NCBI GenBank assembly: GCA_951406725.2
Contig: OX597825.1
Coordinates: 28,706,001-28,770,000 of the forward strand
Direction: 5' to 3'
Source: Octopus vulgaris
Lineage: Eukaryota
Length of the DNA: 64,000 nucleotides
This document shows positions 10,133 to 56,608 of this stretch, in pieces. The position numbers were made by a program, and so were the translations under genes. The notes beneath the pieces are model-generated. The model worked only from the letters and a program-made list of their open reading frames with translations. It had not been told where the DNA came from and did no database searches. Position 1 is the first letter of the stretch, and every line of letters starts with the position of its first letter.

Positions 10133-10338
10133 TGTGTGTGTGTGTGTATGTGTGTGTGTGCGGCTTGACAACCGATGCTGGTGTGTTTACGTCCCCGTAA
10201 CTTAGCGGTTCGGCAAAAGAAACCGATAGAATAAGTACTGGGCTTACAAAGAATAAGTCCTGGGGTCGATTTGCTCGACTAAAGGCGGTGCTCCAGCATG
10301 GCCGCAGTCAAATGACTGAAACAAGTAAAAGAGTAAGA
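9912..10338 (+). mobile_element. SINE family A
   Basis: Same head, CORE-like segment, internal microsatellite and tail as 3128-3532. Confidence 0.9.
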
Positions 10339-10849
10339 ATATGCGATCCTGTTACCTTGAAATGATAATAATAATAATAAAACATTGGATAATGTAGTAC
10401 TAGTTTACTATGCCTGGGAAAAATAAAGGATGTAATGGAAGAAAAAAAACAAACAAAAAGATAGCTGGAATGCCAGGTGACTGGTCTTTTCTTAATACGG
10501 GATTATTTGAAGGTTAAACGCAAGAAACAAAAACAACTACAACCCCTTCAACTCTACCTCTTTGCTCACAATCGTCTAAAATATAAAGAACATATATCCG
10601 ATTAATTACTGTAACAATGTTAAACCATAACAATAACAGATTTACTCTCACCTATTGTCATCATACAGAATTACGCCAGGGACCTAGAGAACAAAAAGAA
10701 CAAAAATACATAAAGCGCAGCAACCAAAAATAAGGAAAACATTCCGTCTGTATATTACTCTTTTACTCTTTTACTTGTTTCAGTCATTTGACTGCGGCCA
10801 TGCTGGAGCACCGCCTTTAGTCGAGCAAATCGACCCCAGGACTTATTCT

Positions 10850-10974
10850 GCCCGTTCAAAAATTTGGACCTGGAGATCTCCATTTCCAGCGACTTCGAGC
10901 GCCACCTCCCAGTGGCGTCGGGCGTCAACGAAGGGCCCTCGAATACAACAAGACGACCTAAGACGACCAAAGAC
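10850..10974 (+). mobile_element. 125-bp 5'-truncated retroposon insertion with a 10-bp target-site duplication (TSD)
   Basis: GACTTATTCT at 10840-10849 and 10975-10984; the insert ends in three AAGACGACYN units. Confidence 0.75.
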
Positions 10975-11143
10975 GACTTATTCTTTGAAAGCCTAGTACT
11001 TATTCTATCGGTTCTTTTGCCGAACGGCTACGTTACGGGGACGTAAACACAACGGCATCGGCTGTAAAGCGATGCTGGGGGGACGATCACATACACACAA
11101 ACATATACACACATACATACATACATACATACATACATACATA

Positions 11144-11197
<54 letters not shown>

Positions 11198-11417
11198 ACT
11201 AATGTAGGATAAAATTTTTATTTTTCGAAAAAATTTTTATCAATGGCCAGCATATAAAAAAATACCTTTAAAGGTTAAATTTATAAATAACTTATAAAAT
11301 AAGGGCAAAAGAAAAATTCTAATGCCAAATATGCCGAAAAAAAGACAAAATTGTCAATAACCATTATAATTTATGCGTCTCGAAACAAGCCGATAGAAAT
11401 TTCTAAAAAATTCGGTA

Positions 11418-11478
11418 TTACCGTATTGGTCCCAATTTCGGGGTTAATTCATAAGAATTTTCCCCTCTTCAGCGATAA
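11418..11478 (-). ncRNA. Type I hammerhead ribozyme (predicted)
   Basis: Minus strand: TTATCG-CTGAAGA-GGGG aa AATTC ttat GAATT aa CCCC-GAAA-TTG ggac CAA-TA-CGGTAA. Complete core, stems I, II and III all pair, AUA cleavage triplet. Confidence 0.85.
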
Positions 11479-11579
11479 ATACGTAAGACAGAAATGGAAT
11501 ACTTACTCATACCCATGAGCAGACTTAAGTACCCCAAATATATCCTAAATAGAAAATCTTCCGCACATGTCTTACGTAT

Positions 11580-11640
11580 TTATCGCTGAAGAGGGGAAAA
11601 TTCTTACGAATTAAGCCCGAAATTGGGACCAATACGGTAA
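11580..11640 (+). ncRNA. Type I hammerhead ribozyme (predicted)
   Basis: TTATCG (11580-85), CTGAAGA (11586-92), GGG..CCC stem II, GAAA (11619-22), TTG ggac CAA, T, A (11634), CGGTAA; predicted cleavage after 11634. Confidence 0.85.
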
Positions 11641-11767
11641 TAACGGATGTTTTAGAAATTTCTATCGGCTTGTTTCGAGACGCATAAATTATAATGGTTA
11701 TTGACAATTTTGTCTTTTTTTCGGCATATTTGGCATTAGAATTTTTATTTTGCCCTTATTTTATAAG

Positions 11768-11823
<56 letters not shown>

Positions 11824-12267
11824 GACGGGTTTCTTTCAGTTTCCGTCTCACAAGGCTTTGGTCGGCCCGAGGCTATAGTAGAATACACTTGCCCAAGGTG
11901 CCACGCAGTGGGACTGAAATCAGAACCATGTGGTTGGTAAGCAACCTACTTACCACACAGCCACTCCCAATATTATTACAAGTTTGTCCATCTAAGAAAT
12001 CGATATTATTAATTTGGTCTAACTTCTAAATTCTCAACCTTGCCAAAATAACTCCAACATATACAATAAATAATAATGGTTTCTTTGTGTTTATAAGTAA
12101 TCATAATTTCTTTTATGATTTCTAAATATTTTAATAAGAAAGGTTTCCAACACGATTACTTCCAACTTAATTATTTCTGATACAGGTGCAGCGCACACAA
12201 TTACTTTAATAATAATGATGATAATAATAATGATCATGATGATGAAAATATCAACAACAACAACAAT

Positions 12268-12814: not shown

Positions 12815-13033
12815 AGGGTTTAAAATTTTGCCACAAGGGCAGCAGTTTGCGGGGAGGGGATGAGTCGATTACATCGACCCCAGTGTTCAACTGGTACTTA
12901 TTTTATCGACCCCGAAAGGGATGAAAGGCAAAGACGACCTCGGTGGAATTTGAACTCAGAACGTAGCGACGGGCGAAATGCCACCAAGCATTTCGTTCGG
13001 CGCGCTAACGATTCTGTCAGCTCGCCGCCTTCC
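12815..13033 (-). mobile_element. SINE family B, full length, type-1 tail
   Basis: Head GGCGGCGAGCTG..GAGTTCAAATTCC and family body on the minus strand. Confidence 0.9.
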
Positions 13034-13106
13034 CAATGATAGAAATAATAATGGATGATGCTGATGCTGATGATGATGATGATGATAACAATAATAATAA
13101 TATGAA

Positions 13107-13527: not shown

Positions 13528-13757
13528 TATTTCTTTACTACCCAGAAGGGGCTACACACAGAGGGGACAAACAGGGACAGACAAACGGATTAAGTCGATT
13601 ATATAGACCCTAGTGCGTAACTGGTACTTATTTAATCGACCCCGAAAGGATGAAAGGCAAAGTCGACCTCGGTGGAATTTGAACTCAGAACGTAGCGGGA
13701 GACGAAATACTGCTAAGCATTTCGCCCGGAATGCTAACTTTTCTGCCAGCTCGCCGC
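13528..13757 (-). mobile_element. SINE family B, type-2 tail
   Basis: Family head and body plus the tail ending GTAGTAAAGAAATA on the minus strand. Confidence 0.9.
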
Positions 13758-14274
13758 GTTATGCCAGCTCGACGCGTTTGCCACCATCCCCCAAAACAGC
13801 TGAAATACGTGAAAAAATAAAGAGTTGGCAAATATCGAGATGAATTCAAATATACAAATGGGAAACGATTATATGGTCCAGTTATATTATATACACGGAA
13901 CGGTGTACTTCAGTCTCTATACATTCATGATCGTGTTCATGGCTTTGTGCAACTGAAGGCCGTCACATTGCATTATCAATGAATCATTTCAATGATTCTT
14001 TCGAGCAATGGCTTTGCTCGTATACGAGAAAGCAGTCACTATGTATGTATGTATGTATGTAAGTATGTATGTATGTATGTATGTATGTATGTATGTATGT
14101 ATGTATGTATGTATGTATGTATGTATGTATGTATGTATGAATGTATGTACGTAGTACGTATGTATGTATGTATGTATGTATGTATGTATGTATGTATGTA
14201 TGTATGTATGTATGTATGAATGTATGTACGTAGTACGTACGTATGTATGTATGTATGTATGTATGTATGTATGT

Positions 14275-20269: not shown

Positions 20270-20690
20270 ATAAGAAGATGTAGTGCTAACGTAGATAAAA
20301 AATCCGACCACTTCGCCACCTGCTTCTCATTGCTTTAAATCAAGGTTCCAAAACTGCTAAAGCCGATCGAGAAATTTGTGCTGTGTATAGAGAAGGTGCT
20401 ATCACAAAGAACTGCACAGAAATGGTTTTCAAGGAGGGAAAATTTACCTCTTCTCTGCGATCCGGCGGACCTGTTCATTCTCATTGGGGATCGAGTGAAT
20501 AAGTCCATCCACGGGGAACTGTAGCAATTTACTAAGGAATTAGCACAGCAGATGGAATGATTTCATGATACCGTAACTCGACTCTTTCACTCGATGGATG
20601 AGATCCTTGGATTTCACAAGCTCTGAACGAAAGAAAAAAGCTGAAGACTGAACATCGTTGATTTGACGAAAAGTGCTATTCAAGCGCTCT
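20270..20690 (+). pseudogene. Mariner transposase N-terminal remnant
   Basis: RHLLLIALNQGSKTAKADREICAVYREGAIT..RTAQKWF..RSGGPV (mariner HTH region with the GRP-like linker), frameshifted. Confidence 0.75.
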
Positions 20691-55705: not shown

Positions 55706-56117
55706 GGCGGGCTGGTAGAAACGTTAGCACACCGGGCGAAATGCTTAGCGGTATTTCGTCTCACGTTACGTTCTGAGTTCAAATTCCACCGAGGTCGACT
55801 TTGCCTTTCATCCTTTCGGGGTGATTAAATAAGCACCAGTTACGCACTGGGGTCGATATAATCGATTTAATCCGTTTGTCTGTCCTTGTTTGTCCGCTCT
55901 GTGTTTAGCCACTTGTGGGTAGTAAAGAAATAGGTATTTCGTCTGCCGTTACGTTCTGAGTTCAAGTTCCGCCGAGGTCAACTTTGCCTTTCATTCTTCC
56001 AGGGTCAATAAATTAAGTACCAGTTACACACTGGGGTCGATGTAATCGACTTAGTCCTTTTGTCTGTCCTTGTTTGTCCCCTCTATGTTTAACCCCTTGT
56101 GGACAATAAAAGAAATA
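55706..56117 (+). mobile_element. SINE family B dimer with a 14-bp TSD
   Basis: GGGAAATGTCCTTC (55692-55705) / GGGAACTGTCCTTC (56118-56131); junction AAAGAAATA|GGTATTTCGTC at 55931/55932. Confidence 0.9.
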
Positions 56118-56608
56118 GGGAACTGTCCTTCTTTCAAGACAATTCAATAAAAACAAACGTTTGGTTATTTCCAATTGGCAAACGAGCGAAGTGCTTCAAT
56201 AGCTTATTCTGTTGGCATATAATTTCCAGTCTTTTATTCTGAAATATTGCTACGACTATTAATACGATTTTGTTCATGGCGATTCTCTTGTTATCTTGCT
56301 TGTTATTTCTCTATAGTTGCCTCAAATTTCTTTAATCTTCCAACCGACGTAATGTCTCTGTAGTTTTTAATTTCTGATAAAATTATCTTATGTTTTCATT
56401 ATTTTCCTTACTTTCCTGTCTAGTCTTACAAATTCAATTAGTTTCTCGTTGAGGATATTGTAACTAGTGTATTTCTATAACAAAAAAAGTGTTTACACAC
56501 ATCACGTGCGTGGATACGCTCACACACACACACAGGTGTGAGCGGGCGTGTATGTATATATGTATCTGTGTGTGTGTGTGTATATGTTTATATGCGTATG
56601 TATGTATA

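Follow-up and report, generated by a model that had tools for sequence, protein, structure and literature searches.

Previous studies showed that an inverted 5'-truncated copy, together with a 30-40 bp "tail" on one end, is standard in Penelope-like elements (PLEs) (PMC8557442), and head-to-head inversions with palindromes at the junction have been described in rotifer PLEs (PMC3846280). In vitro, two start sites of reverse transcription bound the tail of an anole PLE (PMC11167929). In the Hydra clade, 26 of the 27 listed families target (TA)n, one of the families being from Octopus bimaculoides, and the stems III of the listed ribozymes are palindromic in 26/26 rows, with 3-4 bp and loops of 1-3 nt (PMC8557442). 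Hammerheads on opposite strands, 100-700 bp apart, were noted in 2014 (PMC4209133), and PLE hammerheads were described in three reports as cutting mainly as dimers or with the assistance of proteins (PMC4209133, PMC6765202, PMC11167929). Mussel has type I hammerhead repeats of 350-390 bp, and a cleavage rate of about 0.1 per min is given for a mussel retrozyme repeat (PMC7229834). Short hammerhead retrozymes are traced back to PLE ends in a 2026 preprint (bioRxiv 10.64898/2026.07.22.740005).

The locus described here lies in a 64-kb stretch of the Octopus vulgaris genome, referred to below as the window. It is an insert of 576 bases with two mirror-image arms inside the TA microsatellite of a dispersed repeat (Table 1). 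In alignment, 11287-11490 and 11568-11771 are reverse-complementary at 198 of 204 positions, the six mismatches falling at 11311/11747, 11409/11649, 11412/11646, 11415/11643, 11443/11615, and 11451/11607. Each arm holds one hammerhead motif, and the 204-bp inverted repeat with two motifs that had been claimed from the letters alone (hereafter the sequence-only reading) is thereby borne out by both the alignment and the descriptor matches. The same reading had laid out the element as 11196..11771; its boundaries of the arms stand, but 11196-11286 and 11491-11567 belong to the long arm. Contigs of other copies cross both 11490/11491 and 11286/11287, so the apparent "spacer" and the left 91 bases form one minus-strand arm of 372 nt. 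The insert is thus composed of a 372-nt long arm and a 204-nt short arm, set head to head with their cut 5' ends meeting, and the 3' ends of both lie in (TA)n. The 91-nt extension of the long arm is presumably the counterpart of the PLE tail.

Table 1. Features of the insert and of its host repeat; coordinates are those of the window, and strands are ribozyme-sense for the arms.
Feature	Position	Strand	Remarks
Host dispersed repeat, first part	10763..11085	+	8-10 other matches per segment in the window; very high contig depth
Host internal microsatellite, left part, (CA)n/(TACA)n then (TA)n (target tract)	11086..11195		
Long arm, 372 nt	11196..11567	-	5' cut at 11567; 3' end near 11196-11200
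3' extension of 91 nt, long arm only	11196..11286	-	Covered in 7/7 runs
Inverted-repeat arm 1, 204 nt	11287..11490	-	From alignment
Type I hammerhead motif, long arm	11418..11478	-	C3 11472, G12 11439; predicted cleavage after A17 11424
Upstream part of long arm (loop of the inverted repeat)	11491..11567	-	Joined directly to arm 1 in other copies
Head-to-head junction, 6-bp palindrome ACATGT	11565..11570		The first three bases are identical in both arms
Short arm (inverted-repeat arm 2)	11568..11771	+	5' cut 77 nt further; ends in (TA)n
Type I hammerhead motif, short arm	11580..11640	+	C3 11586; predicted cleavage after A17 11634
(TA)n target tract, right part	11772..11822		
Host dispersed repeat, second part	11823..11967	+	Shorter by a 12-bp deletion than other copies; matched 10 further times in the window

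The microsatellite site of the host repeat spans 737 bp here and 49-140 bp in seven other copies within the window, which bears out the claimed nesting in the (TA)n tract of a repeat. A target-site duplication could not be read in (TA)n. The SINE label that the sequence-only reading gives to the host repeat is putative: ARAGORN detected no tRNA gene there, and patterns of the Pol III A and B boxes, which degenerate heads would escape, gave no match. The first part of the host repeat is itself interrupted at 10850-10984, where a second insertion of 125 bp sits between 10-bp direct repeats (10840-10849, 10975-10984). Its empty form occurs in contigs of 4/4 runs as a joint 10839>10975 that skips 135 bases, the depth on this insertion is high, and no other copy of it is present within the window. 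Two oppositely oriented copies of the host repeat, 10250-10336 and 10763-10849, complement each other at 100% over these 87 nt but reach only 83-90% in their remaining segments, suggesting recent gene conversion or a young chimeric head. The window also contains another common repeat as two diverged direct copies 729 bp apart (12863-13031 and 13593-13760), and a 184-bp tandem pair at 55750-56119 appears to share a motif with it.

According to the descriptor search, a type I hammerhead core (CUGANGA, GAAA, and UH, with three helices, open at stem I) is present in both arms, in the order CUGAAGA, stem II, GAAA, stem III, AUA cleavage triplet, and stem I; positions follow the hammerhead numbering. 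Stem I has 6 bp including one U.G pair. Stem III, which is palindromic and closed by a GGAC loop, has 4 bp when A15.1-U16.1 is counted. Stem II consists of 4+5 bp in the long arm versus 3+5 bp in the short arm, whose outer part is shortened by a C>G change at 11615. A loose type I descriptor, applied to both strands of the 64-kb window, returned three matches, two of which are these motifs; the third, at 13067, is poor and lies within a GAT repeat. The strict form (stem I of at least 6 bp, stems II and III of at least 3 bp each, with cut-offs set from these motifs themselves) matched 0/40 dinucleotide shuffles. The RNAMotif-type check proposed by the sequence-only reading recovered both motifs, and its statement that each strand carries one ribozyme arm in sense agrees with the C3 positions in Table 1. 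Its Rfam check had the opposite outcome, as no hammerhead reached the gathering score and none of the 18 matches at E<=10 was a hammerhead. The hammerhead pattern was also scanned for in prokaryote genomes and in viral contigs, with 0 matches in either, and in metagenome contigs, where it occurred at seven loci; by blastn, 0/7 resembled the long arm over more than 27 nt, and all were taken as chance matches.

All six reading frames of the insert are broken by stops, and a 32-codon frame that ends in the UGA of the ribozyme has no Pfam match. A profile scan of 148 frames of the window (146 of the 201 that passed a filter plus two more, a set from which short exons would be missed) found no reverse transcriptase or GIY-YIG match. 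One frame scored above the curated cut-off and four gave weaker matches. The former, at 20299-20499 on the plus strand, is a remnant of a mariner-type transposase helix-turn-helix (Pfam HTH_48, E=1e-6).

The evidence on the repeat family comes from contigs assembled from seven of 24 public sequencing runs. Over 394 bases lie 5711 (run X2), 3141 (X6), 1578 (X7), and 319 (X16) contigs, whereas the unique flank is covered by single contigs; the insert is thus a member of a multi-copy family. Bounds of about 70 to 28,000 copies were derived from depth and left unused, since depth is no copy number. Contigs of X10 and X16, guessed to be RNA runs, span the cleavage site, an observation with no bearing on expression or cleavage. 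Upstream, the family extends beyond 11568 as a loose end (12 contigs, agreement 0.96), and the sequence that can be seen ahead of the ribozyme amounts to about 120 nt (89 in the window and the 30-letter loose end). Contig depth remains high up to 11560; a 5'-truncation gradient read from depth was rejected, since 11533-11546 is deeper than the ribozyme region. In the long arm, relative to other copies, about 6 bases are extra near 11214 and 9-24 bases are missing near 11513-11517.

The 3' end of the short arm recurs in other copies, as 19 contigs of X6 and four of X16 have loose ends that run into (TA)n ahead of the equivalent position 11282; the 3' end of the long arm, near 11196-11200, lies at the edge of the compared stretch, and its recurrence is therefore weaker than that of 11282. 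Opposite-strand joints were found at three other position pairs, 11261/11361, 11290/11340, and 11302/11568, the first two lying wholly 3' of the ribozyme, so that neither arm would hold one. Four head-to-tail joints, 11568>11200, 11555>11199, 11555>11230, and 11559>11220, step back by 326-369 nt. The joints given are those among the matches listed, with six further joints existing; each head-to-tail joint is carried by one contig per run, and the intervening letters are not given in 3/4. The fourth has four TA-like bases at the joint and also fits one copy inserted beside another. Steps of this size would be expected of a head-to-tail unit of roughly 0.4 kb. At 11389/11669, both arms share a letter that is absent from 66-87% of the depth, as would be expected if both had been copied from one template.

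The two arms diverge by 2.9% (95% CI 1.1-6.3%). If an octopus calibration of 0.09 substitutions per site for 25 Myr (PMC13282606, as excerpted) applies, this would correspond to about 4 Myr, and the description of the insertion as young is partly supported. Among the copies, 41 of 290 positions are listed as varying, 39 of them from the comparison of X2, X6, X7, and X16 and two (11463 and 11440) listed in the other contig comparison only. All 11 core positions are free of variants (P=0.18, or P=0.09 when only the motif is considered), and five of eight stem changes kept a pair (P=0.11-0.36); neither result is significant. Of the seven positions of CUGANGA, only N7 varies, in 23-30% of depth and in 4/4 runs. 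In stem I, a change from U.G to C-G and one from A-U to G.U occur together. A G-C to A-U swap is possible at 11463 with 11442, as read from separate variant positions rather than from one linked copy, and the same copies may also carry G.U at 10.1-11.1. Loop III varies, including the loss of one G, while its palindromic flanks are mostly kept. This pattern fits a working ribozyme in the parent family, with no test reaching significance.

Compared with 5'-truncated insertions of endonuclease-bearing PLEs, the locus is alike in its head-to-head inverted copy, one-sided extension, junction palindrome, microsatellite target, and type I hammerhead near the 3' end. It is unlike them in the length of the extension, 91 nt rather than 30-40, and in that no ORF, direct pLTR, or readable target-site duplication is seen. 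With the listed members of the Hydra clade (Hydra-1_Obim, Penelope-13_HM) it shares the (TA)n target, a short palindromic stem III, and a ribozyme near the 3' end, and with Penelope-13_HM also ribozymes on both strands through an inverted copy. However, its sequence differs from that of the listed octopus Hydra ribozyme, its stem III opens with AU instead of AC and is about one pair longer, its stem II has an internal loop, and the clade's protein is not seen here. The claim that stem III is fuller than usual therefore holds to the extent of that one pair, but the palindromic design is almost the same.

The metazoan non-LTR retrozymes of mussel, coral, and axolotl (PMC7229834, bioRxiv 10.64898/2026.07.22.740005) are similar in having a canonical type I hammerhead with a 6-bp stem I, low GC, many copies, no ORF (here in the part seen), and a head-to-tail arrangement, of which the present family gives hints at about 0.4 kb. 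Unlike these head-to-tail units of 170-400 nt, the octopus locus is inverted and not tandem; in the preprint on PLE-derived retrozymes (bioRxiv 10.64898/2026.07.22.740005), the word "inverted" occurs once, in a reference title. Pairs of minimal hammerheads in Schistosoma PLEs (PMC4209133) also lie on opposite strands, as do the motifs here with 114 bp between their C3 positions, but the Schistosoma motifs are described without a stem III and these have one. Two motifs of the family had no match in the supplement of the O. vulgaris repeat paper, and the words "hammerhead", "ribozyme", and "retrozyme" are absent from its main text (PMC13282606). Among the literature found for hammerhead ribozyme and octopus, only Craig et al. 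(PMC8557442) concerns PLEs.

We read the insert as two cut-short copies of a ribozyme-bearing repeat end, left by the Penelope-type insertion of a non-coding RNA unit of about 0.4 kb, and give this reading a probability of roughly 0.6. A Penelope-driven mechanism as such, whether it acted on a non-coding unit or left the stub of a coding element, is very probable, and the earlier suggestion of a Penelope-type insertion with an inverted truncated copy is supported by the layout and by the contig joints. In the proposed course of events, a Penelope-type reverse transcriptase-endonuclease would nick both strands of (TA)n, and one RNA would be copied into cDNA from two fixed start sites separated by about 85-91 nt, giving rise to the arm that ends at 11771 and the arm that ends near 11196. 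Both cDNAs would stop early, and their ends would be joined through a 3-base microhomology in the same single event; two ribozymes would be present only because each cDNA had by chance extended beyond the hammerhead. The "non-autonomous" character given to the element by the sequence-only reading gains from the four head-to-tail joints and from the lack of a visible ORF, within the limit of about 120 nt of visible upstream sequence.

The same mechanism could instead have left two pseudo-LTR stubs of an autonomous, coding Penelope-like element, for example of the Hydra or Neptune clade, which we consider possible though unlikely. Hydra elements are targeted to (TA)n and occur in octopus, a type I hammerhead sits some 90-210 nt before the 3' end in most of the listed families, and in Penelope-13_HM an inverted, 5'-truncated copy places one ribozyme on each strand (PMC8557442). 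PLEs make up 6.83% of O. vulgaris according to the repeat paper (PMC13282606), and the stretch visible upstream of the ribozyme is too short to exclude an ORF further up. However, the short steps of the four head-to-tail joints suggest a short period, and the depth does not fall before 11560. Moreover, 26/26 listed Hydra ribozyme rows open stem III with AC where the octopus motif has AU, and three short ribozyme motifs had 0 matches in the supplement of Craig et al. (PMC8557442).

In the parent family of the non-coding unit, the hammerhead would serve to cleave multimers of the transcript into units, with likely help from paired palindromic stems III. In ViennaRNA, stem III alone comes to +0.5 kcal/mol when folded as a hairpin, versus -12.3 for the duplex of two molecules, which encloses a tandem GA. 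The predicted probability of the active secondary structure is 0.01-0.02 when the motif is folded by itself and falls to 1e-3 to 1e-6 when flanks are included, and the minimum-energy fold differs from the hammerhead. The active fold loses to a pairing of 11483-11478 with 11427-11422, which spans the cleavage site; as ViennaRNA ignores tertiary contacts and Mg2+, this low probability is no proof of inactivity. Monomer cleavage, which the sequence-only reading derives from the fuller stem III, may occur but gains no support from these folds, and published Hydra-clade ribozymes have nearly the same stem. At the locus itself, the two motifs cannot dimerise in cis, since no transcript carries both in sense. 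The alternative 6-bp helix, which spans 11483-11422 on the minus strand and 11575-11636 on the plus strand and covers the cleavage site, beats the hammerhead fold by 4-6 kcal/mol in 93-nt folds. No variant is listed at 11479-11483, and the helix may be an off-state or an accident.

The 30 upstream letters of the family beyond 11568 (in ribozyme sense, present in other copies only) include GTTCGAATC, which fits the Pol III B-box consensus; no A box is seen in these 30 letters. The motif was spotted after the fact, and would be a weak lead to a Schistosoma Sm-alpha-like promoter. A literature search on the B box found no paper.

A more detailed version of the non-coding reading is tentative and, on balance, doubtful. 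The family would be a circular non-coding RNA parasite of about 0.4 kb, copied by Penelope enzymes from two starts about 90 nt apart; its ribozyme would be off in the monomer through the helix 11483-11478/11427-11422 and would cut only in the multimer through paired stems III, and the element may use the Pol III B box upstream of 11568. The spacing of the starts in this version is more than twice the published one. If it were true, retrozyme circles, ribozyme control, and Penelope insertion chemistry would be united in one element.

The second arm could also have been produced after the insertion of one ordinary copy, by a later DNA-level duplication folding back on the first. The minority letter shared by the arms at 11389/11669 and the short palindrome at the junction would both fit such an origin. 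It is nevertheless improbable, because the 3' end of the short arm in (TA)n recurs in other copies, an end that a random duplication would not pick, and because other copies invert at other points.

Coleoid cephalopods are known for heavy A-to-I editing, and the sequence-only reading had proposed that a read-through RNA of the locus might act as a switch, choosing between ribozyme cutting and ADAR editing of the 200-bp hairpin. The hairpin is real and would form long double-stranded RNA if transcribed, and both cores are intact after about 3% divergence of the arms; intact cores are, however, expected by chance, given a change of about 1.5% in each arm over 22 core bases. The order of the arms opposes the proposal. 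Since they point outward, the sense core (nt 391 of 576 on the plus strand, nt 300 on the minus strand) is always transcribed after the antisense core (nt 271 and 180, respectively). In folds of the growing RNA, which represent equilibrium and not kinetics, the first arm already base-pairs with 16-17 nt of the second (P>0.9) when the sense core has yet to emerge, and the whole insert reaches -335 to -340 kcal/mol versus -9 to -14 for the ribozyme (ViennaRNA). In addition, the short arm lacks one stem II pair, two of the three other inversions hold no ribozyme, and no host gene was found among the 148 frames, in which short exons would be missed. A literature search joining hammerhead, ADAR, inverted repeat, and retrotransposon yielded nothing relevant. 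We consider the switch highly improbable at this locus, because each ribozyme in a read-through RNA would be paired to the complementary arm. Both motifs are predicted to be inert in such RNA, which would form a duplex and might be edited, as might any long inverted repeat.

Least credible of all is that the motifs are chance look-alikes or dead relics of no ribozyme ancestry, for which the missing Rfam match, the non-hammerhead minimum-energy fold, and the non-significant conservation tests could be cited, against 0/40 strict matches in shuffles, a CUGANGA box in which only N7 varies, and a position and design that match published PLE and retrozyme hammerheads.

Taken as two truncated copies of a ribozyme-bearing repeat end, the locus likely behaves like an ordinary PLE insertion footprint. 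Its ingredients, namely the inverted truncated copy, the tail, the TA target, the opposite-strand hammerheads, and short molluscan hammerhead repeats, have all been published. In head-to-head insertions of this kind, the ribozyme always follows its own complement, so double-stranded RNA is expected instead of cleavage. The single locus matters little by itself; it adds one family for asking whether Penelope enzymes spread retrozymes.
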